A stretch of DNA of 37,253 nucleotides from a virus (lineage: Duplodnaviria; Caudoviricetes): IMG/VR virus record IMGVR_UViG_3300020584_000002, positions 1 through 37,253 of that record; one strand, written 5' to 3'. Shown piece after piece: positions 5,701 to 33,200 of the stretch (position 1 is the stretch's first letter; each line of letters begins with the position of its first letter). Made by a program: the position numbers and the translations under genes. The notes under the pieces were generated by a model, which was not told where the DNA came from, ran no database searches, and saw only the letters and a list, made by a program, of their open reading frames with translations.

Positions 5701-8700
5701 GTAACAACAGTACCAGTACTACCATGACTATATTCTATATCTTGTCCAGTTACGAAATTATGATCTGGAATTCTTATTGCATCCTGTTCTATCCATACTG
5801 ATGAATTAGGTGTGAAGTTAACAATTCTGTCCTGTATTTCTGAACCTGCATTAAATGTAAACTTAGTGTCATCAACTATGCTTGCGATTTTATATACACC
5901 ATCAGTAGATCCCGGTGTAGTTGCGTTAAAGATCTGTGTGCCTACACCTTTAGTAGCAAGATCTACTACGTTTGTTTTTTGAAATGTACCTGTACCAGTA
6001 AATGGTTTTGCAGTATAGATTTGTCCATAATAATCATTTATTAAACAAGCGTCATAAGTTTGATGAAGAATAATATAGTTAGCGTTGTGCTTGTAAACGT
6101 AATAATATGCACCAGATTGAAATGGTGATACTGGACTTGAACTTGTGTACTTAACACGATCACCTGTATTAAATGGGTGACCAATCATATACCAATAAAC
6201 AGCATTACCAGCTATATAAGAAGTATTTTGTGGAACATCTACCGCAGTACCAGTTACTTCATCAGCGGTTGTAGATAGTTGAAACTTATCTGTTGTTGCA
6301 TTTTGTACAAAGTATGTTGTTCCATCAACAAGTGGATGTATTAGTTCACCACCATTTGCGTTATAAGTAACTGCATCTCCATTGTTTAATCCATGATTAG
6401 TTGCGTGTATATAATCTCCACTAGCAACAAGTGTAAAAGGAATTATTAAATCATATGTAGTAGCAGCACCATTACCGTAGTTACCAAAATTATTAAAGTA
6501 AGTATAATCTGTCCATCCAAATCGTATTCTATTATTATCTACTTTTTCAACTCTCCATCTATAACCATTAGACAAACCTGATATCGCAGTAGAGTTAGAA
6601 GTATGGTAAACCTGATCGCCAGTTTCTAATCCATGATTAGGGAAATATAAAGTATTGGCATCAGGAGCCCGCCTTACTTTAATCATAATACCTGCCGAAA
6701 CAGCACCTGATAATTGCTTAGTAGAGCCACCTAATTGATCTGAGAATGATACTGTTAATCCATCAGGTGAAACAGTTTTAGGATATACAACTTGACCTCC
6801 ACCTATTTCATAGCTTAATAGCATACCAGAACTACTAAATACAGTTATGCCACCAAAGGTTGTATAGCAAGCCATTAATAATTGATCTTGCCCTGCCGTT
6901 ACATTTAAATTATCTATAAAAGTAATAGTGTCTTCTGCTGTATTTGCTGATCCTGTAGCACGATATGCTTTAACAAAACACCCTCTTGATATACCTGCCG
7001 CAGCTCCTGCATTACTTATACTAACTGGAGTTGTACTGTTTTCAGTTAAAGTTAAATAAATTTTAGTGGTACTTACTACTCTAACGTAATACCAACGTGA
7101 ATCTGTTAATCCATATATATTACTATTACCATAACCAATAAAATATACATATGGTTTATTGTCTACTAACCCATGAGGAGTAGTAAATTCAATTGTATTA
7201 GCAGTTGCGTCTACACCAATAGTGCTATTAGTACCTGTACCCGGTACAAAGAAAAATGCATCTTCTGGTAACCAGTTCTTAGGTTGAGGACCACCTAAAG
7301 CCCAACCACCTGTTTCACCAGTTGCTTCAGTTCTTAACTTAAGACCTACTCTTAAAAATGTAGATATGTTATTTGTTGTGCCACCATAGTTAGTCATATT
7401 AATAACTGTGGAATTAGCAGGGTATAAGTTAACACCTTGAAATCTAAATCTGTTTGGGTATGCAGAATCGGCAGCTATTAATTGGTAGTAACCATTATTA
7501 GTAAACCCTCCGGGGATAGATGTAGAGTTGTAATAAACTTGATCACCATTTACCCAACCACCTCTAGGTAAATAAATACTGTTCATATCACTCTTACTTT
7601 GCTCCTCCATAGGAACAATAATTCCATTAACAGTAGCACTTGTCGCATTAAAAGTAGCACCACCTACACTTAATAAAAACTTAGCTTGGTTTTGTGTACC
7701 TGATTCGGGAGCAAGATAATATGAGTATGGAGTAGCGTCACCTTCAAAGTAATACATAAAGTAAGTTGAAGGAGAAGTACTATAATTAAGACCACCTATT
7801 GTTGTATAAAAAGGTCGATATGGTGTATTGGCATCACAGCCCGGAGGATGTGTACCATTAGCATTAGTAAAGTTTTGATCAAACGTCCACACTTCTGTTG
7901 TTGTATTTACTGAAGATGCGTAAAGACCCCACATTAAACAAGAACGCATATGACCTGCGTTAGCTCCTTGGCCTGTAAGGTTTACTCTGTTTAATCCTGT
8001 TGGTCCAGATATAGTCAAATATATTTTTTTACTATCTACAACTCTTACCCAGTAAGGTCTTTCTGCTAAACCACCCGGTGTGCTGTTTCCATATCCAGTA
8101 ACCCAGTATGCAGCTTCACCATCAGCAAATACATGGTCTTCATCAAATTCTATTTCATTAGTTGTAGTGTTAAAGTTAACATCACTATCTGCCTGTCCAC
8201 CAATAATTACAAACATTCCACGTTTAGGTGTCCAGTTGTATGGATTAATAGCACCAATAGCCCATTTAGACTTGTCACCAAAACTGGTGGCTGTCAAGTG
8301 TGTAAATGATTCGACCTTTGTTCTAGCGTTGTTTGGCTCTACATTTGCTGCGTTAACAGAAATACTTTTACTACCTAAACTATTACTTAAAAAGAAACTA
8401 GTACCTACGCTAAAGTTTGTAGGATCTTCTGTTTCTACTGTTAATGTAGATGGGTTTGCTGCGTCTGTTGTAATTGCATTTAATGCAGATAATTGAAACT
8501 CAGTACCTTGATAAACAGAACCAACAAATATTTGTGTGTATGTATCTAATATAGAACCAGTACCAGATTGTGCTGATTTGGCTTTGTATTGAAAACTAGT
8601 AGTTGAAGGTATAGCAGTAACAATAAAAGCACCATCGGCAGAAATGCTGTCAGTACCTTGAACAATAATTGGATTACCTATAGATAGGTTATGACTTTCA

Positions 8701-10406: not shown

Positions 10407-13400
10407 CTACCTCCTACTTCCTTTACTAGATTTACCTGTGAGAGTACCTCTAATAAAATCTGCCGTATTTTCTGGATTTACTTTTCCTGAGTAAACATCT
10501 AATAAATAACCGCCAGTTCTACCGACAGGAGTAACTGGTATGCCAGAAATTATTGTAACTAAAGCACTTATATCTCTTATCTGATAACCGCTAATACCTT
10601 TACCTTGATAAAGATCAACAGGAATTTTAACTAAAGTCCGACCACCTCTTGTTAATAATTCTATAGATGGACTAGAAACCATACTGTCATTCCAAGGTTT
10701 ATCATCAAACTGATTTATAGGAATAAGCAATGCATTACCAAAAACTGGAACAAATGCTTTTTTATAATTTATAAGATCTCCTAATACTGCTTTCATCATG
10801 TCATCAGCTATCATGCCATCATCATCTTCATCCAAGAACAAATTACCTGCAAAAGTTCTACCAATAAGACCTGCAATAACAGCGGGCATCATAATTGCAT
10901 AAAGATACATATAAAATAATTGTTCTGTACCTTTGCCTTTATTATTAAATCCAAGATCTCTTGTTATTTTTTGATATTGATTATTGTCTAAGTTAGCTAT
11001 GTTATTAAAGTAACCAGTAAATTGACTTATAGATTGAATTATAGGATTCCAGTTTTGGAAACCTGCTCTGTCTTCTGGTAGTAAACTATCTTGTGTCATA
11101 CGAACAGCGGCATCCGCTTGCTTTATAGCTTCTGTTTGTACATCTATATCGCTCATAGATGTAGGTAATTTTTGATGTGTTTGGTTATATACTGCCATCC
11201 ATACAACAGCGTCTACTTGGTTTTGAAATGTTTGCTGTAAAAAATATGCGTGTTTTGTAGACCAATCTTTAAATCTGTCAAATCTATTTGGATTAACTAA
11301 TAATTCATTTAATCTATCTTGTATATCAAATATTTGGTTAAGTTGACGATCTGCCATAAAGGGTGACAAATCTGCAATTGCTTGCATAGTACCTTGTCTA
11401 TCTTGCATATAATTTTGTAATGAACTTATCATCTGTACTGGTGTTGCTTTTAACATTGCAGGAAACACACCTGTGTATTGTTCTATAGCATTCTTAAGAT
11501 TAAAGAACATAACTGCCATACCACCTTTTTTTCTAGTTGTATTTAATCCTTGATCAAATTCTGGTCCTAATCCAGTAGGAGCAAAAGTTCTTTGCGATAC
11601 AACTGTTTGTAACCAAGGTTTAATTAAATAATCTAATTTTGTAGGATTTAATATTTGTAATTTTTTCTGGAATTCTTTGTTATTTACTATTTTTAAAGCA
11701 TCTTTTACTTTAGGTTGCACATATGCATAACGCAAAGAATCATCTATATGTTTAGTCATATAATTTAAATTTAACGATAATGGTTGTGCAAAATTTTCAT
11801 TACGTTCTTTTGTCATGCCGTTTTCTACCATAGGTAATGACAATCTGAACTCTCTTTCTAATTGTTCAACAGTTATTTCTACGTCTTGTTTAGTCATATT
11901 AGGATCGCCTTTTGCAGGAACATATCCACCTCTAAAAGTACCAAACTCATTAACAATAGGTGTAGCTTCTACCGTTTTAAAATAATATCCATTAAGTTCT
12001 CTATGTGCTTGTTGTAATAGTGGCAACATTTTTTGATTTAAATCCCATACAGCTTGCATAAAGATATAATCAGTTTTTGTTAAAAAACCTTCATCTTTCA
12101 TACGTTGTACAAAATTATCCCAATGTGTTCTATTTAAAGTGCCATCTTCATTTAACGAACCCCAACCTCTACCTAATAATAATTTTTTTAGATTACTATC
12201 ATTGCCTGTATGCAACATAGCTCCAAGTAATTCTACTTTTCCTATACCATCAGAATCTGTACCAAATGTATATGGAGTTGATTCTTCAGAAACTTCATTA
12301 AATTCAAATGCAGTTATTTTAGTTTCTTTGCTACCAAAATCTAAGGCAGCTACTAACTCAGTATATTCTCTAGTAATTACATATTGTTGTTGTCTATATT
12401 CATTTAATGCTTCTTTTATTGGATAAAATAAAGTGTTATATAAATATCCTAATTTACCGTCTTTTAATTGTAGTACTGCCGAACCAAAGCCTTTCATAAC
12501 TTCATCTGCACCATCTATAAGATCAACAAAACTTTCCATACGTTGCAAATTAGATCCTAATGTCAAAGCAAATTTATGTAGTTTTTGTTTCCAACCATTA
12601 TTAACTGCTTCTGATTTACCCGGTGGATTAATTTGTCGTTCTCGTGCCGCAGGGCTTTGAGATATTCTTTTATCTAATAAATCTAATATTGGTTGTAATG
12701 CTTCTTGAAAAGCGACTAATTTATTACCTTGTCTTATTTGTTCATCTCTTAAAGATTGATACCATAAAGTATCTAGCGTATCTTCTACATTATAAAATTC
12801 ACTAACTGTTAAAGATGTTAATTCTGTTTTTCCACTTTTTTGACTTGCTTTTAAAATAATTGGTTCTAGTTGTTCGTATGTAAATGGATTGTATTCTTGT
12901 ATTTGTTTCATCTTTTCTTGTACATTTATTCTTTGTTTTGCAATACCATAGGAATACAAGATAGCTCTACCTGCATCTATTAAAAACATATTTCTTTTTG
13001 ACTTATTATTTTTATCTTTAAACTGTTTATCTGTTTGTAAGAACTTTTGAAATTTTCCATTTTTCTTAGTTGCATTATCGTATCGTTTTAATATTTCAAC
13101 TGATTCTTTTGCTAATTGATTTGCTATTAATTGTGATCGTTTAGCTTCTACAGCCATTCTTAAACTCTCTGGATCTTTTTTACCTAAATGTTCTTCTGTT
13201 CTTTTTCTTGCTTTTTCTTCATCACGAGTATAATCACTAACTCTTATGTCTTCTAATTTTGTATTAGCAAGTATGTCTAATGCAGCCTCATTTGCTGCCG
13301 CAATTTGTAAACGAACTGGTTGTGTAGATTTAGATAAAAATTTAAGTTCTAAAGAAATAAATCTTGCTCGTGCTTCATTGTGTAAAGCTTCTTGTAATCC

Positions 13401-16400
13401 TAATTGTATTTGTTTTTCATCAACTAATTCAGAATATTCTTCTAACATACGTTTTTCTGTTCTTTCTTTGATAACTTCCTTTATATCTCTTGCACTTAAT
13501 ATTGCGTCTATCATATCTAAACCACTCTTGTAACCAAACAAATCTGCTACATCTTCTATACTTTGACCCTCTTTAGCTAACATACCTGACTTACCATAAC
13601 CAAGTTCTTTCATTTCAAATTTCATATCGTGAAATGGAACTAGTTGTTTTACGCTCTCAATAGAGATTTTATTTCCAGATTGAACTTTTATTTTTTCGCC
13701 TTTGTCATTTCTTGTTTCTCCTTTTTTTAAATAATTAATTAATCTATATACTGTTTCGTTTTCTACTTCTTCAGTAACTTCTGCTTCTACTTTTTTATAA
13801 GTTTTTTTATGTTTTCTTTGTAAATCAGCTAAATATTTACTTTTAGCATTTTCAAACCAACTTAATTGTGCCATGCTTTTTTGATTTAATATTTCTTTAG
13901 ATTCATCAAATGCTTCTTGCAATTGTTGTTGATAATTAGCCCATTCAGAATCTGACATACCACTTTGCTCTTTTGTTTGGAACATTGCTTTCATTCCATA
14001 CATTTCGTTAGCTAATATTATGTCTTGATTAGTTGAAAGCATACGATCCATAACACTTCTTACTTCATCTGTAAGAACTGGTAAGTCTTTACCAAATAAT
14101 GCTCTATATGTGTTATTAAGATTATATTTAATGTCTTGATAAACTTCTTCAAGAAATCTTGCAAAGTCTCTAAATATTCTGCGTAGATGTTGTTTTTTAA
14201 CTGGCACTTTACCTGTATGCAAATAGATTTCAAAATTTAATGCAAATGCTTCATGGTATTCTTTTTTCTGTTCTATAGACAATTTGCTCCATGTATCTAT
14301 ATCTTCAACACCCCAGAAATCAAGTAAAACATTAAAGTCATTTATTATGTCGGCAGGAGCATCACCACTTAAAACAATGTCTTCCATAACTGACAACATA
14401 TAATGACCAGTTTCATGGAAAAATGTAGATATATCTGAGTCTTTATTTAATAAAGTTGTAAACGATTTTGGATCAAACCTTCCTTTAGGTCCTTTGCTAT
14501 CTCTTCTTTGCTCATAAAATTCGCCAACTTTTACAGCAATAGACCCGCCGTATCTAAGGTTTCCTTTATCGTCTTGAAGTCTGATGTTGAAATCTTTTCG
14601 TCCGTTAGGGAATTCATCATTGAGTTCAAGGATTCTAGGGTCAACCCTGATGGGAACTGCTGTATTACCATATCCAATATCTGTGATAGCTCTGGTGGTA
14701 ACGTAGACATCAGGTTCTCCAGCACTTCTAAGTTCTCCTGTTGATCTGATTGCTTCTGCGTTTTTTCTACTGGTGTGGTGGTAGAGGGTAACTGTTCCGT
14801 CTGGGTTGATGGGGAGTCCTGTTTTTTCGTCAATGTTTGCGTCTTCTGTATCTTGTTGTTGGTAAGTTTCTCGAATTCCCTCGTCAACTCTTCTTCCATC
14901 ATCATCTCGTTGAATTCCTGTTGACTGCTCATTGGACTGTAACTCATCATCAACCTCCTTTATTGTGCTTTGTATAAGATCATCTGATATACCCATTGTA
15001 GCAACAAACGATGCAGCAGCATTAGCATAGTCAGGAGCTTCATTATCCTCATAACCTGTTTCAACAACTGCTTCTTTTAATTTTGCAGAATCATATAATT
15101 TTTTTTCTGGATACCATACAAGTGCTTGCAAATCAGCCATTGTTAAATTTGGATATTCTTTATTTAAAATTTCTAAAACTTGTGAAAATACTTTGACAAT
15201 GTTTCTACGTTCTACAGGACCACTTGGTGTTTCTTTTTGTCCATCATTGTCTTTAGCTAAACCATTACCTTGTTTACGCAATAAATCACCAAGACTTACT
15301 GTTTCGTCACCTTTTCTAGGTTTACCCATTATTTCAACAAATGTATCGTAATTTTTTTGATCTTCATCAAATCTTGCTATTAATTTCATTTGCATTGGCA
15401 CACCTTTACCTGCAGATTTATTTTTAATAGCTAAAGCAACATTATCAATATCTCCTAAAGTAAGCTTTCTACCTATTAATTTTTCAAATGCTTTTTTCTG
15501 TTCTTTAGATAATGCTCTTATAATTGCTTTAATATTTTTTCTTTTTTGTTTTGCTAATCTTTCTCTGTCTAAAACTAACGTACCTGTCATGCGACCCCAT
15601 GTACGCATAGCCCATCTATCTACAGTTAGTTGTTCATAATTACCATATAGATTTGCAAAAAATCCATTACCAATTTTAGGACCAATAATTGCAGAACCGT
15701 AAACTATATCTCCTAAACTAAAATCACTTGGTATTTTTATTTGTTTTCCATCTCTATCTAAACCAACAAATTCTTGCACTTCTTTTCCTGTATGTTTAGT
15801 TCTCATAAATTTTTCTAATTCTGCAAAAGGTTTTTTATCTAACAAATCATTTAACCTTCTAAAAGATTTTTCCATTGCTGCTCTAGATTCACCACCTGTT
15901 TCTTCACCTAATTCATTAAGCATTAATTCTGGTAAACGTCCTTTTCCTTCTCCTAATTCTTGTTCTGACATTAACCATTTTTCATAAACATCTGTTGCAT
16001 ATTCAAAGTTTTTATCTACTTTAATACCGTTACTTGTTGTTGCTAAAGCCCATTTAAAAATGAAACCATGTCTTTTATCAGTAGCAACTTTTGGATATTT
16101 AAGAGCAAGTATTCGTACTGCTTTAGTTACTTTTTCGTCATACCAACCAACAGCATTTGGGTTTTCTATCAAAGCATATCTTGCATCTGCTAATAAAGTT
16201 TGTACAAGATATTTTTCTGCTTGTACTGTAAATTTAGAAAGATCAACATTATTTTTCTTTGCTTCTTTTTTAACACGGTTTTGTATTTCTAATTTAAATT
16301 GTCTGTTAGTTTTAAAAGGTTTACTTTTTGCAAATTCAAAATTTTCTACAATTTTTGCAATTTGATATACAGCTTGCGGTACAACATTACCTTGTTCTTG

Positions 16401-19097
16401 TTGACCTCGTTGTTCAAAAGTTTCTAATTGTTGTTCATATATATTGTCAATTTCTCTAGACCAATTGTCTTTATCGTTAACTGATTTAACTGCATTACTG
16501 TCAAATACAACTACTTCTGTCACCTCGTTAGTATCAGGATTAACAACTAATACACCATCATGTCCTTCTTGTATTAACTTTTTTCTGTAACTAGTTTTTG
16601 CTCCTTTACCACCTTTTTGCAATTGTTCTTTAATGTTTGGATTGGTTTCTCTGTATGGGTTTTCTAAACGCACATACGAGGGCATAACATCAGGATCTAA
16701 ATTCTTTTGTTGTTTGTATGTTTTAGCGTCATTTTCATTTAATGAAAGATATATACCTCTACCAAAAATTCCTATGTCAGGTCTATTTGTATTTTTTAAA
16801 TTGTAACGATCAAAACTACTTGTAGTACCGTGGTATAAAACTTGAGGAGTACCATCGGCATTTTTCATTTTTGATTTACCAAACCAATTTTTAAACAAAG
16901 CACTATCAGTTTTTACAGAACCATTTTGATTAAAAAAGTCATTACCAAAATCTTGTGGTTTACCTTCATAAATTACGTTATAAAAATATTTATTTATAAA
17001 ATCCTTGATATTCATATTATTTCTTTTTGCAAATGTCAAAGCAAAAGCTAAAGGTAAATGTGTTAGCTGTGTGGCAACTTCTTTAGTGTATTTACCTGTA
17101 GCTACTAGCTGTTCTTTTATTTGTGCTTTATATGCGTTAGCTTCTCTTTGTGATTCTTTAAATTCTGCTGTTTTTGTTTTTATATCTTTTAATGTTTGGT
17201 CTAACATCTTATCTTTAATTTTATAAACTTCTTGAAATTCTTTTTGACTATATGTATTATTGCCAAGACGTAGATGTGGCCTTAATATATTGTGGAAATC
17301 TGAACCTGCAATATTAGCTAAATAATCACCTTGAGTTATTTTTATGCTTTTACCAACAAGACCTTCATCAGTTGCTTTTCTTAATTGACTACTTAAATTT
17401 TTATCAAATAGTTCTAATTGCTCCATTGAAATATCATTTTCATCTAATTGCTGTTGAAAAGTTTCTGCATCTACATACCAATCTTTAACACCAAATCTGT
17501 CTCCAACTAAATCCATATAGTTTTGCCATAAATTTTTGTTTCTTTTTTTTGTCTTATCATCTTTTGTTATTTCAAGCATTTGTTCAATATATTGTTGATC
17601 ACTATCTGATTGCCTAACATTATTTGCTGTACGCATATATCCACCACCAGAAGTCACAATTCCAAATGTAACCATTCCTCTAAAAGTATCCCACATGACT
17701 CCTTTAATCCTGTCCATACCTTCTTCCATATCAACAGGATTTGTTTCATATGTAGCCATTTCTGCAGCTATGTTAAAACCAATAATATTAATTAATTCTT
17801 GAACTACTTCAGTTGAAGTTTCTGACAATATATTAGTTGCTATGTCTTTAAATATATCTTGTGTAGCAGAATAAACTGTGAGTTGTTGAAACTTATCACT
17901 TAAAGAATCTTTAACAGATCTTCTAAGAAATCTTTTATTTAACATAACCCAAGAAGATTCTAACTTAGGACCTAATCCAGATCTTCCTAATGAACCTTGC
18001 AACCATTTATTAGTTCCTATTTTTACTAAACCTTTACTAGCTATACTAGATGTACCTTTAAATAAAAATGGCAATCCAATACGTTCTACACCAGCCGCAA
18101 GGAATCCCACCATATGAGCTTGCCTTGCAGCATCTTCATGAGATAATCCACCAACTCTGGTTATAGCATCTAAATAAGAATTACCACCTTCAACCATGTA
18201 TGAATTAATCGCCATATAATTAAATGCGGCTGGTAATCCTGTAGTAGCACCAAGAACTCCACCTATAGCAGTACCTTTACCGGGAACAACACTACCTGCT
18301 ATTGCACCAAGCTTTGCATTAATTTTTGCAGTAACTAAACCTGTTGTTGCAGCCGCAGGTAGTTGTCTTGACCATTGACCCGCGTAATACGCACCTGCTT
18401 CTATCCAATTAACACCATCCTCGTTATACATTGCAATTTTTGCATCAATTTCTTTTATCCGAGCTAATTTTTCTTCTCTTGTTTGTTTTTCACTAAAAGC
18501 ACCAAATATGTCAGCTGCTATAAATTTTTTAATTCTATCGCCTTGGTGATATTCATTATCTGGATCACCTGTCATTAATTGATATCCTAATAATCCTCTT
18601 TCGTTAGTTAGCCAACCTTTATGTATACCTTGTTGTAACCCAACACCTCCACCGTATATCCATCGGAAAGGCATAGTTAAAGCTCTACCAGTTGTGTAAT
18701 ATTCTTGTAAATGTTCTATGTTGTCATGTGCTAATGCAGCAAACCGAGGATCTTCTAATTGTCTTGCTAATATTGGATTTATTTTTGCAAAATTTTGATT
18801 AAGAATATATTCTTCACGTTTTCTTTTTTTTATATAATTGAATGTTTCGTCATCATTGTTTAATTCAAAATCTGCTGGTAAATTAAATTGTTCTTTAAAT
18901 TTTTGTATTTCACCAACTTTATCACCGTCCATTTCACTAACGGCTTTTAAAGTTTGTCTTATATTATTCCATTGCCTATCTTGTTCAAATTTTGCATATT
19001 CAATATCTAATGCATCACCAGTTTTATTAAAAACATTAGATGAATTATTATTTTCATAATCACCTAGATCTTCGTACTTAATTATTTTGTCATCCAT
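10407..19097 (-). CDS. Large internal virion (ejectosome-type) polyvalent protein, 2896 aa, with ART, glycosylase-like, ART and zincin domains
   Basis: Third internal-protein position as in T7 gp16/BPP-1; motifs FKNWFG..LYHGT..GIYLS..EVVVFD; GWYD..GPKI..TVDRW..QALVW; LYHHTS..VYVTT; FFHETGH..HEAFA. Confidence 0.8.
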   Translation of the reverse strand: MDDKIIKYEDLGDYENNNSSNVFNKTGDALDIEYAKFEQDRQWNNIRQTLKAVSEMDGDKVGEIQKFKEQFNLPADFELNNDDETFNYIKKRKREEYILNQNFAKINPILARQLEDPRFAALAHDNIEHLQEYYTTGRALTMPFRWIYGGGVGLQQGIHKGWLTNERGLLGYQLMTGDPDNEYHQGDRIKKFIAADIFGAFSEKQTREEKLARIKEIDAKIAMYNEDGVNWIEAGAYYAGQWSRQLPAAATTGLVTAKINAKLGAIAGSVVPGKGTAIGGVLGATTGLPAAFNYMAINSYMVEGGNSYLDAITRVGGLSHEDAARQAHMVGFLAAGVERIGLPFLFKGTSSIASKGLVKIGTNKWLQGSLGRSGLGPKLESSWVMLNKRFLRRSVKDSLSDKFQQLTVYSATQDIFKDIATNILSETSTEVVQELINIIGFNIAAEMATYETNPVDMEEGMDRIKGVMWDTFRGMVTFGIVTSGGGYMRTANNVRQSDSDQQYIEQMLEITKDDKTKKRNKNLWQNYMDLVGDRFGVKDWYVDAETFQQQLDENDISMEQLELFDKNLSSQLRKATDEGLVGKSIKITQGDYLANIAGSDFHNILRPHLRLGNNTYSQKEFQEVYKIKDKMLDQTLKDIKTKTAEFKESQREANAYKAQIKEQLVATGKYTKEVATQLTHLPLAFALTFAKRNNMNIKDFINKYFYNVIYEGKPQDFGNDFFNQNGSVKTDSALFKNWFGKSKMKNADGTPQVLYHGTTSSFDRYNLKNTNRPDIGIFGRGIYLSLNENDAKTYKQQKNLDPDVMPSYVRLENPYRETNPNIKEQLQKGGKGAKTSYRKKLIQEGHDGVLVVNPDTNEVTEVVVFDSNAVKSVNDKDNWSREIDNIYEQQLETFEQRGQQEQGNVVPQAVYQIAKIVENFEFAKSKPFKTNRQFKLEIQNRVKKEAKKNNVDLSKFTVQAEKYLVQTLLADARYALIENPNAVGWYDEKVTKAVRILALKYPKVATDKRHGFIFKWALATTSNGIKVDKNFEYATDVYEKWLMSEQELGEGKGRLPELMLNELGEETGGESRAAMEKSFRRLNDLLDKKPFAELEKFMRTKHTGKEVQEFVGLDRDGKQIKIPSDFSLGDIVYGSAIIGPKIGNGFFANLYGNYEQLTVDRWAMRTWGRMTGTLVLDRERLAKQKRKNIKAIIRALSKEQKKAFEKLIGRKLTLGDIDNVALAIKNKSAGKGVPMQMKLIARFDEDQKNYDTFVEIMGKPRKGDETVSLGDLLRKQGNGLAKDNDGQKETPSGPVERRNIVKVFSQVLEILNKEYPNLTMADLQALVWYPEKKLYDSAKLKEAVVETGYEDNEAPDYANAAASFVATMGISDDLIQSTIKEVDDELQSNEQSTGIQRDDDGRRVDEGIRETYQQQDTEDANIDEKTGLPINPDGTVTLYHHTSRKNAEAIRSTGELRSAGEPDVYVTTRAITDIGYGNTAVPIRVDPRILELNDEFPNGRKDFNIRLQDDKGNLRYGGSIAVKVGEFYEQRRDSKGPKGRFDPKSFTTLLNKDSDISTFFHETGHYMLSVMEDIVLSGDAPADIINDFNVLLDFWGVEDIDTWSKLSIEQKKEYHEAFALNFEIYLHTGKVPVKKQHLRRIFRDFARFLEEVYQDIKYNLNNTYRALFGKDLPVLTDEVRSVMDRMLSTNQDIILANEMYGMKAMFQTKEQSGMSDSEWANYQQQLQEAFDESKEILNQKSMAQLSWFENAKSKYLADLQRKHKKTYKKVEAEVTEEVENETVYRLINYLKKGETRNDKGEKIKVQSGNKISIESVKQLVPFHDMKFEMKELGYGKSGMLAKEGQSIEDVADLFGYKSGLDMIDAILSARDIKEVIKERTEKRMLEEYSELVDEKQIQLGLQEALHNEARARFISLELKFLSKSTQPVRLQIAAANEAALDILANTKLEDIRVSDYTRDEEKARKRTEEHLGKKDPESLRMAVEAKRSQLIANQLAKESVEILKRYDNATKKNGKFQKFLQTDKQFKDKNNKSKRNMFLIDAGRAILYSYGIAKQRINVQEKMKQIQEYNPFTYEQLEPIILKASQKSGKTELTSLTVSEFYNVEDTLDTLWYQSLRDEQIRQGNKLVAFQEALQPILDLLDKRISQSPAARERQINPPGKSEAVNNGWKQKLHKFALTLGSNLQRMESFVDLIDGADEVMKGFGSAVLQLKDGKLGYLYNTLFYPIKEALNEYRQQQYVITREYTELVAALDFGSKETKITAFEFNEVSEESTPYTFGTDSDGIGKVELLGAMLHTGNDSNLKKLLLGRGWGSLNEDGTLNRTHWDNFVQRMKDEGFLTKTDYIFMQAVWDLNQKMLPLLQQAHRELNGYYFKTVEATPIVNEFGTFRGGYVPAKGDPNMTKQDVEITVEQLEREFRLSLPMVENGMTKERNENFAQPLSLNLNYMTKHIDDSLRYAYVQPKVKDALKIVNNKEFQKKLQILNPTKLDYLIKPWLQTVVSQRTFAPTGLGPEFDQGLNTTRKKGGMAVMFFNLKNAIEQYTGVFPAMLKATPVQMISSLQNYMQDRQGTMQAIADLSPFMADRQLNQIFDIQDRLNELLVNPNRFDRFKDWSTKHAYFLQQTFQNQVDAVVWMAVYNQTHQKLPTSMSDIDVQTEAIKQADAAVRMTQDSLLPEDRAGFQNWNPIIQSISQFTGYFNNIANLDNNQYQKITRDLGFNNKGKGTEQLFYMYLYAIMMPAVIAGLIGRTFAGNLFLDEDDDGMIADDMMKAVLGDLINYKKAFVPVFGNALLIPINQFDDKPWNDSMVSSPSIELLTRGGRTLVKIPVDLYQGKGISGYQIRDISALVTIISGIPVTPVGRTGGYLLDVYSGKVNPENTADFIRGTLTGKSSKGSRR
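14531..14950 (-). CDS. Putative overprinted gene in the +1 frame of the polyvalent protein (~139 aa)
   Basis: AAGGAGGT at 14960-14953 followed by TG-ATG-ATG; frame open for 140 codons; the host frame avoids NTA codons throughout the overlap. Confidence 0.55.
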   Translation of the reverse strand: MMSYSPMSSQQEFNEMMMEEELTREFEKLTNNKIQKTQTLTKKQDSPSTQTEQLPSTTTPVEKTQKQSDQQENLEVLENLMSTLPPELSQILDMVIQQFPSGLTLESLNSMMNSLTDEKISTSDFKTIKETLDTAGLLL

Positions 19098-22276: not shown

Positions 22277-24741
22277 TATCCACCCACAGCCACTTCGGTG
22301 GTTAATCCTACAATAGTTAATGGTAATGGATCTGTTTGACGAATAAATATTTGACCATTATCTTGCCATGTAGGGGTCAACATAATTTTTATATCTTCTG
22401 TTTTTAAATTAGGTGGTGTTCCATATGGTTCTGTAGTACGTTGTTTTGCTTCTATTAATTTATCAGCACTAGGTCCTGCAAAAATACCAGATGATTCTAA
22501 TACTCTTAACCACACATGATTTAAATTTTTTACTCGACCTTGCCCGAAAGCTTCTATTTGTAATGCCAACGGTAATGTTTGTAAATCACTCTCATAAGGT
22601 AAACCAAGATGTACAACACTAGCCGCACGATCTAAAGTAACACTTCCACTAGCAACAGTTTTTTGTGGATGTACTGCACCATCAGCTAATATATTTATTT
22701 TTTTTCCCTCTAAAAAATTAAGTCCTGTTATTTTATTTCTTGCTACTTCAAATGTTGTAATAGCTGTATTACGCAAACTTACTGGTAAATCTTTATCTAA
22801 TTTTGCAGTTGCTACTGTTTGACTAGCAGTAGATAAAATAGTGCAACGATAAAACGTAGATCCGTCTACTAATACAATCGCATCATCTTTATCGTCTACA
22901 CTTGGCGGTGCATTAAATAAATTATAGTTAGCTGTAACTACAATACTTTCTCCTTTTTTATAAGTTGTACCGCCTGATATAGTTACTGTTTTATTTGTAT
23001 CTGTATTTGTGCCATCATATGTTGCACCACAATCAACAAAAAAATTATCTCTTTGTGTTTTAAATAATCTTGTACCCATACGTTCTATATATCTTTTATT
23101 AGCACCATTAATATTTCTTTGTATAACGCAATATGTAACATCATCATTACCTTCAGAAACACAAGCTACGCTTTCAAATAAACCATCTGTATCATGTTGA
23201 TGCCATGCACCTAATTGTTGTTCTGGAACATAAGTTAAACCTAACAATTTTCCATTACTACTAGTCATCCATACAATAGGTATTGGAGCTTTAGATAATG
23301 CCATATCTATTGTTGTCAAATTATCAAACAAATGAGGTGCCCGCAAAGATAAATCACCTGTAATAAATCCATTAGCTTGCCAGTTATATCCTAATTCTCT
23401 AACGTGACCACCACGAGCAGCAGCATATACCAAACTATTATTAACAATTACTGGTTGTGAATTGTTTGCTCCAATATAAGATTGTGGTTTTACAGAAATA
23501 GAAGATGGAGTTATAGCATCACTATTAATAGAAGTTATTCTCCATTCTGCCGACCCTGTAAGAAGTAGCAATTGCGTTAAAGGAACAATATGTCTAATAG
23601 TATTAGCTTCTCTTGCAGCAACTCTAAACTCAATACGATCATCATCTTGTATTGGTAAACCAAAAGACATATTACTTTCAGTACCTGATTTAGTCATCCA
23701 AATATCTTGTGGTCCATTATTAGTACCTGCAAAAACTCTACGTTGTTCAAAGTAAGATACAGCACCCGGATAATTACCAGTACCAACAAAATCATTTTCA
23801 TGTATTGGCGGTGTTCTAGAAAAATCTGGGGCAACATTATCGTCTACTAATGTAGTTGTAGTTGTCTCTCCTAAAAATCCATATATACCACCTTGTTCTT
23901 TGTAAACTCTATATCTTGTCGCACCTGTAACGGCATTCCATGTAATTGTATTTTTTGCTCCAGTAACAAAAATATTATTATCAACAGACGCAGAAGATGA
24001 TTGGTTGCTTTCTTCTACTAAATTAGTACCTATTGCAGTTACAACGTATTTATGAGTTAAATAAGTATCAGCGTTAGTAGTTGAAGAACTTGGAATATAC
24101 ATAGCAGCTTGCACGTTTGTTGGTGTCGGCAAAGGTGAACCAAAATTTATTACTTTTAATTCCCATTTAGTTGCACCTAATCTTCTTAGTTCTCTTGGTG
24201 CATGATTAGGATGCACTAGCGTCATAACGTCAGCGGATTGCACATAATGTACATCAAACAATTCTGCTTCTGTATATGGATGCGGTACTTCATATATATA
24301 ATTTGCAGGCATTGCATACCAATAAGCTGTATTAGGTGGTGCTTGGTTTGTATGAGCAACTGTACAGTAATAATTAACACCTCCTTGCAAAGCAATATCA
24401 CCAACTGTATATGCAGTAGCATTGCTCCATGCAGCACCGTTTGAATATAATAATGTTTGACCTTGTGTATGAAACCTAAAATAATTATTACCAAATTCAA
24501 TAACCATTGTTTGCACAGTAGAAAAAGTAAAAGACAATAATCTTACTTTTGTTGCACTATCTTTTACTTCATTTACATACGCAAAACCTGATCTGTTCTG
24601 TGCAGGTCCTTGTGGTTTTACAATAAAATTACGAACTAAGGCTGCACCTTGTTGAAATTTATTATCTCCAATACGACCAAACATTTCTGGTGATATTTCT
24701 CCTCCAGAAAAAGTTTGTTTAAAATTGCGTGTAACTGGCAT
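22276..24741 (-). CDS. Tail tubular protein B / nozzle (T7 gp12, P22 gp10-like)
   Basis: FSGGEISP start, QSADV, YPGAVSYFEQRRVFA, AWHQH, RQTDPLPLTI C-terminus. Confidence 0.9.
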   Translation of the reverse strand: MPVTRNFKQTFSGGEISPEMFGRIGDNKFQQGAALVRNFIVKPQGPAQNRSGFAYVNEVKDSATKVRLLSFTFSTVQTMVIEFGNNYFRFHTQGQTLLYSNGAAWSNATAYTVGDIALQGGVNYYCTVAHTNQAPPNTAYWYAMPANYIYEVPHPYTEAELFDVHYVQSADVMTLVHPNHAPRELRRLGATKWELKVINFGSPLPTPTNVQAAMYIPSSSTTNADTYLTHKYVVTAIGTNLVEESNQSSSASVDNNIFVTGAKNTITWNAVTGATRYRVYKEQGGIYGFLGETTTTTLVDDNVAPDFSRTPPIHENDFVGTGNYPGAVSYFEQRRVFAGTNNGPQDIWMTKSGTESNMSFGLPIQDDDRIEFRVAAREANTIRHIVPLTQLLLLTGSAEWRITSINSDAITPSSISVKPQSYIGANNSQPVIVNNSLVYAAARGGHVRELGYNWQANGFITGDLSLRAPHLFDNLTTIDMALSKAPIPIVWMTSSNGKLLGLTYVPEQQLGAWHQHDTDGLFESVACVSEGNDDVTYCVIQRNINGANKRYIERMGTRLFKTQRDNFFVDCGATYDGTNTDTNKTVTISGGTTYKKGESIVVTANYNLFNAPPSVDDKDDAIVLVDGSTFYRCTILSTASQTVATAKLDKDLPVSLRNTAITTFEVARNKITGLNFLEGKKINILADGAVHPQKTVASGSVTLDRAASVVHLGLPYESDLQTLPLALQIEAFGQGRVKNLNHVWLRVLESSGIFAGPSADKLIEAKQRTTEPYGTPPNLKTEDIKIMLTPTWQDNGQIFIRQTDPLPLTIVGLTTEVAVGG

Positions 24742-31333: not shown

Positions 31334-32659
31334 ATGCAAGTAAGTCTCGATTATACCCCTCGTGAATGGCAGCGACTTTGTCATATAAACAAACAAAGGT
31401 TTAGTGTCTACGCATTGCATAGACGATCAGGTAAAACTGAACTGGCAATCATGGAATTAATAGACAAAGCCATGAAAACAGATAAAGATCTTGCCATATT
31501 TACCTATGTTGCTCCCTTCTTACGTCAGGCTAAAGCTATTAGTTGGGCGAGATTAAAACAAAAACTAGAACCATTAAGACAACGCTCTGCTATAGAAATA
31601 AATGAAGGTGAATTATCTATAAAATTTAAACATAACGGTGCAATTATTAGGTTATTTGGTGGTGATAATCCTGATGCTATGCGTGGATTAAGACTTGATG
31701 GTTGTATTTTGGATGAGGTTGCCAATATAAAACCAGAATTGTGGATGGACATCGTACAGCCTTGTCTATCTGACCGTTTGGGTTGGTGCATTTTTATTGG
31801 TACACCGTCAGGTATTAATCTATTTAGCGAGTTGTATTACAAAGCACTTGATGAGGAAGATTGGACAGCTTCTAGATATACCGTATATGACACAGATTCG
31901 TTGCATCCTTCTGAGGTAGAGCGTCTTAAACGTGATATGAGTGAGACTAGTTTTGCTAGGGAATATCTATGCGACTTCTCAGCACAGGGTGATGATCAGT
32001 TAATAGCATTAGCAGATACCGAAGAAGCATCTAAACGTGTGTATCAATTAGATCATGTGAGACATTCGCCAGTAGTGTTAGGTGTAGATATTGCACGATT
32101 TGGGGATGATCGATCTGTAGTGTTTCGTAGACAGGGTAGACAAGCTTTTAAACCTGTTATTTATCGTGGTATAGACAATATGGATTTAGCTACTAGGGTT
32201 GCCAATCTTATGGAGGAGCATAAACCTGATGCTGTGTTTTGTGATAGTGGTGGTGGAGGTGGTGTAATCGATAGATTAAGACAACTTAAATATGACGTAA
32301 TCGAGATACCGTTTGGTGGTAAGGCTACATATCCCGATAAGTACATAAACCGTAGAACTGAGATGTGGTGGTTAATGAAGGAGTGGGTAGAGGAAGGTGG
32401 TGCGATACCTGATAATGTGGCACTCAAACAAGAATTGGCTACACCCATATACTGGTACGACAATGTGGGTAGGAGAGTGTTGGAGTCTAAGGATCAGATT
32501 AAGAAGAGATTACAGGGTGGTGGATCACCTGATCTTGCGGATGCTCTAGCTCTTACATTTGCCCTTCCAGTTGGTAAGAAACAACCCGAAGACATATACA
32601 TTAAAAGACGTAAAGAAGCTACACAGAAGGCCGATTATGACCCATACAAAATACTTTAA
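31334..32659 (+). CDS. terL: Terminase large subunit
   Basis: Walker A HRRSGKT, Walker B ILDEV, FIGTP coupling motif, nuclease LGVDIARFGDD and SPDLADAL. Confidence 0.95.
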   Translation: MQVSLDYTPREWQRLCHINKQRFSVYALHRRSGKTELAIMELIDKAMKTDKDLAIFTYVAPFLRQAKAISWARLKQKLEPLRQRSAIEINEGELSIKFKHNGAIIRLFGGDNPDAMRGLRLDGCILDEVANIKPELWMDIVQPCLSDRLGWCIFIGTPSGINLFSELYYKALDEEDWTASRYTVYDTDSLHPSEVERLKRDMSETSFAREYLCDFSAQGDDQLIALADTEEASKRVYQLDHVRHSPVVLGVDIARFGDDRSVVFRRQGRQAFKPVIYRGIDNMDLATRVANLMEEHKPDAVFCDSGGGGGVIDRLRQLKYDVIEIPFGGKATYPDKYINRRTEMWWLMKEWVEEGGAIPDNVALKQELATPIYWYDNVGRRVLESKDQIKKRLQGGGSPDLADALALTFALPVGKKQPEDIYIKRRKEATQKADYDPYKIL

Positions 32660-33200
32660 ACGTATAGCTCATGGGTTAGACGTTGAACCATTGCTTGAGT
32701 TGTTGGATGCTAGACCAGAGTTATGGGATGAGATAACAACAAGGCAAACATTTACCAAGTCACCACATAAAGACACCGAGACTATCTATGTTCGAGGGGC
32801 ATTGAAGATGTCTCCTTACTATCTTCTTTACGACATTGGAGCATATGACTATCCATGCATGGAATATCTCAAGACAGCATTAATACCATTGATGCGACCA
32901 ATATTAAACAAGCTACAAGTTAAGGAGTTAGGAAGGGTACTAATAGTTAACTTGAAGTCCACTAGTCAAGTAACAAGACACATCGATCAGGGAACATATG
33001 CAGATCACTATGAGAGGTTTCATATCGTACTAAGAAGCAATCAACATTGCTTTCTAACTAGTGGCAACTGGGTTCTAAACCTTGAAGTAGGAGAGGTATG
33101 GTGGTTTAACAATAAAGTTCTTCACTCCGCAGAAAACAATGGAGATAGCGATAGATGGCACATTATCTTTGATGCTGTTATTTCTCAGGAACTCCAGTAA
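32637..33200 (+). CDS. 2OG-Fe(II) dioxygenase, aspartyl/asparaginyl beta-hydroxylase family
   Basis: HxD (HID), RFHIVL, GEVWWFNN..LH.A.N....R.H...D; likely start is the ATG at 32637 overlapping the terL end. Confidence 0.85.
   Translation: MTHTKYFKRIAHGLDVEPLLELLDARPELWDEITTRQTFTKSPHKDTETIYVRGALKMSPYYLLYDIGAYDYPCMEYLKTALIPLMRPILNKLQVKELGRVLIVNLKSTSQVTRHIDQGTYADHYERFHIVLRSNQHCFLTSGNWVLNLEVGEVWWFNNKVLHSAENNGDSDRWHIIFDAVISQELQ

Follow-up and report, generated by a model that had tools for sequence, protein, structure and literature searches.

The window analysed here is the whole 37,253-nucleotide stretch of IMG/VR virus record IMGVR_UViG_3300020584_000002 (Duplodnaviria; Caudoviricetes), a linear, 87%-complete virus record whose Pfam and PHROG matches make up a podophage gene set (portal, Bbp16, Bbp19, GP7 capsid, tail and terminase), presumably of the BPP-1-like kind. 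Within its virion-gene block, behind the internal-virion and tail genes, lies a gene for a protein of 2896 residues, which combines several disparate domains, among them an LPD and an ART-PolyVal domain. On account of its LPD22, ART-PolyVal and phrog_9880 matches, the product is regarded as a polyvalent protein in the sense used in the main text of Iyer et al. 2017 (PMC5512222). The subject of this report is a small gene in the +1 frame of this giant gene, which begins in the linker behind a glycosylase-like (GL) domain and continues over the second of its ADP-ribosyltransferase-fold domains (ART2; Table 1).

Table 1. Positions of the giant gene, its overprinted gene and associated elements in the window.
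Feature	Position	Strand	Remarks
Host gene, 2896-aa polyvalent protein	10407..19097	-	LPD22; ART-PolyVal, residues 747-878; GL; ART2; HExxH at 1561; phrog_9880
GL domain, residues 909-1384	14946..16373	-	HhH-GPD fold (predicted), DUF7178-related; invariant K1141 (15677) and D1160 (15620)
ART2, ADP-ribosyltransferase-fold domain, ~residues 1427-1531	14505..14819	-	weak Tox-ART-HYD1 (below cut-off) and TreTu matches
Overprinted gene, +1 frame of giant gene, 138 aa	14531..14947	-	ATG at 14947; start given by the open reading frame caller, TTG 14953
N-terminal module of small protein, residues 1-36	14840..14947	-	motif PxSxQExxNE, then helix; predicted plug; main frame is an R/G/D/E-rich linker
C-terminal four-helix module (predicted), ~residues 63-138	14531..14761	-	over ART2; younger extension, under selection
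Shine-Dalgarno sequence AAGGAGGT	14953..14960	-	main frame Lys-Glu-Val; GAG kept in 76/77 rows
Candidate extended -10 element TGCTACAAT	14995..15003	-	clade-restricted; sole minus-strand TGnTAnAAT of the window

The +1 frame runs without stops for 142 codons, the runner-up among +1 stretches of the 2896-codon gene being 58. Resampling of synonymous codons according to their usage in the rest of the gene gave a mean of 9.46 expected stops and not a single stop-free draw in 20,000, and none of 2,000 whole-gene shuffles reached 140 open codons (maximum 119). Both the long open frame and a switch in main-frame codon choice, to which a preliminary description of this DNA had drawn attention, are borne out: within the overlap TTA encodes 1 of 8 leucines (166 of 249 outside), ATA none of 11 isoleucines (97 of 161 outside) and GTA 1 of 8 valines (51 of 148 outside). 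The same description had placed the open reading frame (ORF) exactly over the second ART domain, and it does cover ART2, but it corresponds to main-frame residues 1384-1522 and thus starts with ~40 codons in the linker that separates GL from ART2. The N-terminus of its product, described as acidic and helical, is only mildly acidic, with 7 D/E against 4 K/R in residues 1-36.

The perfect Shine-Dalgarno (SD) sequence AAGGAGGT is found where it had been reported, at 14960-14953 on the minus strand, and translation would begin in the TG-ATG-ATG that follows it, most likely at the second ATG. The start is placed at 14947 because ATG, GTG or TTG is kept at this position in 74/74 homologous segments, although the main-frame residue there can be N, D, L or S; of the alternatives, TTG 14953 overlaps the SD and ATG 14950 lies only 2 nucleotides from it. 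The extended -10 sequence TGCTACAAT is likewise present at 15003-14995 on the minus strand, but the internal promoter that it had been taken to mark is conserved in one clade only (TGnTAnnnT in 46/78 loci, all close relatives, with locus L153 left out of the count and the pattern partly imposed by the main-frame protein), and a sigma-70 promoter scan lists no site there, making the promoter the weakest element of the hidden gene. A search of RNA runs returned 3 with the locus, at shares of 0.05-0.09, in short contigs that are uninformative on level, strand and start.

Comparison with homologues revealed that this second frame is retained and selected. A protein search retrieved 62 called proteins among 95 candidates, and +1 stops are absent from both the linker and the ART2 parts in 74/74 distinct full segments, some of which were found with the small protein itself and are to that extent pre-selected; the flanks carry ~10 stops per 100 codons. 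Among loci found by the upstream domain alone and having a complete ART2, the frame is open in 58/58, the window included. Differences at 4-fold sites amount to 0.057 in the linker and 0.185 over ART2, compared with 0.387 and 0.482 in the flanks (55-70% identity band, the sequence pairs not being independent), and the 4-fold third-position entropy over ART2 is 0.38 versus 0.91 and 1.16 in the flanks. The initiation signals are conserved as well: the SD codon is GAG in 76/77 rows versus 14/196 elsewhere in the gene, and the codon before it ends in AG in 74/77 rows (6 of 83 segments, without the anchor pattern, were dropped), and 49 of the 74 segments have a +1 stop two codons before the start. 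In the second frame, Q9 and N13 are fixed in 74/74 segments over main-frame residues that change, and the C-terminal helices contain several leucines and prolines that behave in a similar way.

The preliminary description had named two ways in which the gene might dissolve, namely homologues with a stopped +1 frame or without the SD, and a codon skew acquired recently from a donor of higher GC. The frame and the SD are retained, and a donor does not explain the skew, because only C is raised at third positions of the overlap (C3 0.32, G3 0.03), unlike in ART2 copies elsewhere (0.31/0.21). RNA structure was also considered as a cause of the third-position conservation and rejected, since the RNA fold z-score over ART2 (-0.10) is no better than that of shuffles. 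Openness beyond chance and in homologues, selection on residues and on initiation signals and, for the ART2 part, one frame older than the other together characterize an overprinted gene. We are therefore nearly certain that the 138-codon +1 frame is a real hidden gene, which, judged from these sequence signals, is likely translated from its own ribosome-binding site; across homologues it holds that the gene is genetically inseparable from the giant gene and has an SD and a start codon of its own.

Database searches with the small protein of the window gave no Pfam or PHROG match and no usable Atlas match, and its structural model (pLDDT, the model's per-residue confidence, 64) no Foldseek match at E ≤ 0.001. 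Weak matches to phrog_1371 were obtained for 33 of 57 small-protein members (best E 4e-6). A possible counterpart of that family, mycobacteriophage Dandelion gp242 (L410:1183-1650), aligns with the last helices of the small protein over 32 columns at a probability of 35%, and its other frames are not ART-like; the resemblance was set aside as chance or convergence.

The GL domain preceding the small gene is predicted to adopt the HhH-GPD fold. In a model of residues 909-1535 (pLDDT 82.9), its best fold match is the Tm1821 8-oxoguanine glycosylase (3n0u; Z 9.9, root-mean-square deviation 4.3, 194 residues aligned), and rows 1-22 of a wide structure search are all of the HhH-GPD fold, as we take these families to be. 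DUF7178 matches GL weakly in Pfam, and the Atlas DUF7178 clusters match at 0.96 with low recognition value; no solved relative was found by sequence at E ≤ 1. K1141 and D1160, 19 residues apart, are invariant in 45/45 GL rows, and we take them to be equivalent to the Lys/Asp pair of the bifunctional glycosylase-lyases, with a spacing that is presumably that of OGG1; the C-terminal QAxxW of GL likewise resembles the guanine-reading motif of OGG1. GL would thus have in common with the HhH-GPD glycosylases (Tm1821 OGG, endonuclease III, OGG1) the fold and the invariant Lys/Asp, and differs from them by ~250 extra residues and by an identity of 13% at best.

The first ~30 residues, with the motif PxSxQExxNE, are the core of the small protein, and their distribution follows GL. 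Relatives of GL at 37-50% identity, from loci with a GC of 0.51-0.70 in which other domains replace ART2, keep PxSxQExx[ND]E at the corresponding place of their +1 frame. The motif pattern, which was drawn from the same sequences on which it was scored, matches 72/78 distinct loci found with GL (5 of the misses are close variants by eye) and only 6/6,781 other windows. It is present in 17/18 loci truly lacking ART2, and in 9 of these 17 distant loci an SD-like 4-mer is accompanied by a start no more than 22 codons away. The ORF is unannotated in all three GenBank phage records that were examined, including the named isolate Limnohabitans phage DC33, for which a product of 71 aa is predicted. 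At the protein level, a GL profile matches 2,372 clusters at 50% identity (1,305 at E ≤ 1e-30), and a footprint score that asks whether the linker protein could encode the motif reached at least 24 in 105/148 top representatives (1 of 149 proteins was dropped), versus 10/444 random and 17/148 linker-like windows.

In the locus of phage DC33 (L242) and in L247, L248, L249 and L153 (4262-4522), the +1 product has a second conserved C-terminal module (~GLTxExAxxMAxxFGF) that precedes another enzyme-like domain, so that the hidden genes, too, look modular. A GL-type locus, L286, has an apparent indel at ~2400-2440, just after the start of the small gene, which could be a lesion or an assembly error.

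Structure prediction places the conserved core on GL. The complex of GL with residues 1-36 was predicted with a score of 0.90, the best of three controls scoring 0.00; the mark applied is reached by 116/157 solved complexes and 2/215 mismatched pairs and is a rough one, as our own alignments were supplied. The runs agree in at least 92% of contacts, with a partner pLDDT of at least 76. Peptide residues Q9, F12 and N13 are predicted to contact the G1139-P1140-K1141 loop and A1074, in an interface that also includes D1160 and the invariant loop D1285-G1286-Q1287; G1139, K1141, D1160 and the DGQ loop are invariant in 45/45 rows. The two fixed residues of the peptide, Q9 and N13, top the list of predicted contacts, so that the residues fixed by second-frame selection are those that the model places in the GL cleft, although the two lines of evidence are not fully independent, the model having seen the alignments. 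Memory of a similar complex by the predictor is unlikely, no sequence-related solved relative of GL having been found. We consider it quite probable, on the strength of this model, that the N-terminus of the small protein binds the GL cleft. The title of the preliminary description implied that the protein serves ART2 as immunity factor or regulator; with the motif kept where ART2 is missing and the N-terminus predicted on GL, that assignment is not supported, and the more likely partner of the conserved core is GL, the domain encoded upstream.

The overlap with ART2 has a different history. ART2 itself matches Tox-ART-HYD1 at E 0.0087, below cut-off, with the H, Y and D/E columns conserved, and its fold matches are weak (TreTu, Z 6.0, root-mean-square deviation 3.6, 86 aligned; a KptA-like ART, Z 5.4). 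In a survey made with a query built from non-GL copies (4 of 160 loci skipped), the +1 frame is open in 76/76 ART2 copies behind GL and stopped in 36/43 copies elsewhere, the seven open ones being L286, L372 (which has a similar long ORF) and five with stops close by. The GL-linked copies form one clade with support 98/82 in a tree from which 50 of the 75 GL-linked rows were left out at random. Because 36/43 other copies are stopped and the overprinted copies are one clade, the main frame of ART2 is the older of the two; on this sequence comparison, the four predicted helices arose by extension of the small gene through the +1 frame of ART2 in a marine clade. The fixed second-frame residues indicate that these helices are under selection. 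They may stabilize the inhibitor; that they block ART2 is possible, if rather doubtful.

Behind a domain that does not align with GL but looks glycosylase-like by eye, locus L372 (2421-2867) has a 148-aa +1 ORF over ART2, possibly an overprint that arose independently (p-AU 0.164). ART2 was found in none of the annotated phage records, and it also occurs, with neither a giant protein nor GL around it, in small proteins 216-401 aa long (P0082, P0084, P0090, P0092).

The interpretation we favor, to which sequence and predicted complex lead us to assign a probability of about two in three, is that the small gene product acts in life as a built-in inhibitor of GL. By analogy with the proteins described in the main text of PMC5512222, and from its gene position, the giant protein would be synthesized late in infection, packaged in the head and delivered to the next host on ejection. 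The small protein would be made from the same late mRNA, possibly also from the internal promoter in the marine clade, and its first ~30 residues would bind the GL cleft of the nascent giant protein, keeping the enzyme inactive until ejection strips the peptide off. An active Lys/Asp glycosylase-lyase would nick phage DNA in replication and packaging, hence the need for a plug. After entry GL could attack host or competitor DNA (the phage encodes a Mom-like modifier) or repair incoming DNA, and in either role unscheduled nicking during packaging would be costly. As the gene lies in the linker adjoining GL, enzyme and inhibitor would move together when polyvalent modules shuffle.

Several observations weigh against inhibition of GL. 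The GL-linked ART2 copies are one clade, and retention in 74/74 segments accordingly reflects one origin and not 74 events. The fold matches of GL have scores that the tool describes as 'unspecific' in the case of helical proteins, and Foldseek returned no match to the GL model at E ≤ 0.001. Non-glycosylases also share the fold (the queuine salvage family DUF2419, Z 8.1, and the amino-acid:DNA transferase gp46, Z 7.0), and GL therefore need not be harmful. The predicted complex rests on the model's own confidence, and injection of the giant protein is argued from gene position and PMC5512222. One locus, L153 (30% identity), is a true miss whose +1 ORF lacks the motif, and in 8 of the 17 distant motif loci a script search detected no SD combined with a start inside 22 codons. 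At least 19 representatives, picked by eye, have the catalytic Lys and no footprint directly behind GL; in 15 of these 19, a similar footprint lies ~325 residues on, behind an inserted domain, which is a hint at the protein level only, no DNA having been found for the GL clade that lacks the adjacent footprint.

Much of the same evidence would fit a peptide that binds the GL cleft as a folding or assembly partner or as a packaging signal rather than as protection from a harmful activity: sequence and complex are equally compatible with it, GL could be a repair or modification enzyme like some of its fold neighbours, and some GL clades have no adjacent footprint. We consider this unlikely, as the predicted site is the invariant catalytic Lys/Asp pocket and not a surface patch, and as other enzymatic modules have SD-led +1 ORFs of their own (for example the zeta-toxin domain of L151), which fits one-to-one inhibitors. 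That the small protein is an immunity factor for ART2 alone appears improbable. In all 76 GL-linked copies the frame runs without a stop until ART2 ends, with fixed second-frame residues and low third-position entropy there over a varying main frame; in L372, whose upstream domain is unrelated, ART2 is likewise overlapped by a +1 ORF, and the C3/G3 skew is the same; and ART2 resembles toxins with immunity partners (TreTu, RhsP2). All of this speaks for a role over ART2, and a two-headed inhibitor would make the ART2 and GL readings both partly right, but the motif persists in loci without ART2, ART2 does without the overlap in 36/43 other contexts, and it is GL that the N-terminal peptide is predicted to bind.

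Two further explanations dispense with a separately initiated inhibitor. Programmed frameshifting into the +1 frame would yield a shortened protein with GL fused to its own plug, the SD-like site stimulating the shift. SD-stimulated frameshifts are known (prfB), the SD lies at the border of the frames, and in L151, L238, L244 and L246 the +1 frame is open far upstream, without a strong SD or nearby start; the +1 stop two codons before the start in 49/74 segments and the NTG in 74/74 are, however, the signature of initiation, which renders a frameshift very improbable. Scarcely credible, and largely refuted, is the notion that the frame is open merely as a consequence of linker composition, of a donor with high GC, of a recent sweep or of RNA structure. 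It is true that R/G/D/E-rich linkers are poor in +1 stops, that ART2 is more conserved at the protein level than its flanks (0.81 vs 0.61 and 0.58) and that chance has left the core free of +1 stops in five GC-rich ART2 copies not linked to GL. Against this stand the resampling, the 4-fold sites and the second-frame residues, the rise of third-position C without G, the RNA fold z-score, and the 1-8 stops carried by all 11 non-GL ART2 copies from loci below 50% GC.

Inhibition of GL, if correct, may be one instance of a wider arrangement. We put forward tentatively, as a conjecture somewhat more apt to fail than to hold, that each injected enzyme module of phage polyvalent proteins is accompanied by its own active-site plug in the +1 frame of the neighbouring linker, an entangled toxin-antidote cassette in a widespread, unannotated layer of second genes. 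The GL plug would then be the first such inhibitor of an HhH-type glycosylase, in a family of more than 1,300 clusters, and in the marine clade new overprinting over ART2 would have made it a two-headed inhibitor of the two adjacent enzymes. Locus L151 has a second +1 ORF (7358-7543) and a third behind a zeta-toxin domain (main-frame codon ~2116), SD-led and of 62 and 51 aa, and L241 (MW202722) has SD-led, unannotated +1 ORFs of 68 and 61 aa at main-frame codons ~1538 and ~1608, the first of which lies behind the inserted domain that also precedes the second ORF of L151, an ORF that it faintly resembles by eye.

Elsewhere in the window, a Mom-like DNA modification gene (PF25680; 35329-36018, minus strand) could shield phage DNA from GL or from host restriction. 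The terminase large subunit and an Asp/Asn beta-hydroxylase-like gene (32559-33200 and 31334-32659, both plus strand) are oriented against the small terminase gene and the virion block. A 92-codon ORF with a TTG start nested in a tail gene (24222-24500, minus strand), with an internal AGGAGG and no SD-led start, is probably due to chance.

The proposal offers a testable answer to the question of how a phage makes DNA-attacking virion cargo without harm to its own genome, and would explain the DNA-level conservation of the 'floppy' R/G/D/E-rich linkers in giant proteins. If it is true, co-expression of the plug should make GL-type enzymes clonable, and the +1 frames of linkers would be a place to look for new enzyme inhibitors. 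The extension over ART2 provides, in addition, a dated example of overprinting giving rise to a protein module.

To our knowledge, no nested inhibitor has been described for HhH-GPD glycosylases. An embedded partner gene is found in the lambda spanins Rz/Rz1, in which a same-strand +1 gene lies within the larger gene whose product it partners; the spanins are membrane lysis proteins, whereas the partner here would be one enzymatic domain of a 2896-aa protein. The DNA mimics Ugi, p56 and SAUGI, of which two come from phages, are small inhibitors that occupy the cleft in which a DNA glycosylase binds its DNA, much as the predicted plug would. They are encoded by separate genes. Their targets are uracil-DNA glycosylases (host enzymes in the case of Ugi and p56), while the plug is predicted to act on an HhH-type domain of the phage's own, so that the target that defines the Ugi type is not the one predicted here; moreover, the peptide is a predicted single helix, and no fold match was obtained with the pLDDT-64 model of the small protein. 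The host protein shares LPD22, ART-PolyVal, HExxH and virion-gene neighbours with the polyvalent proteins of PMC5512222, the main text of which contains no match for 'overlap' or 'glycosylase' and has passages on immunity and antitoxins without nested inhibitors. No description of such a +1 plug gene was found in the openly accessible articles searched, supplements apart; what the present analysis contributes is the motif with its link to GL, the prediction that it plugs the active site, and the dating of the extension across ART2. A further parallel is provided by the Rpn intragenic antitoxins, in which, according to Zhong et al. (10.1101/2023.05.02.539157), a small protein made from an internal site blocks a DNA-attacking enzyme, as is proposed here. 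In that account Rpn-S is in frame, identical to the C-terminus of its toxin and part of a bacterial anti-phage system, whereas the small protein of the window is out of frame, unrelated in sequence, a predicted active-site plug and encoded in a phage virion-gene block. By analogy, it would work like the Rpn type without being a member of it, given its +1 frame and different sequence.

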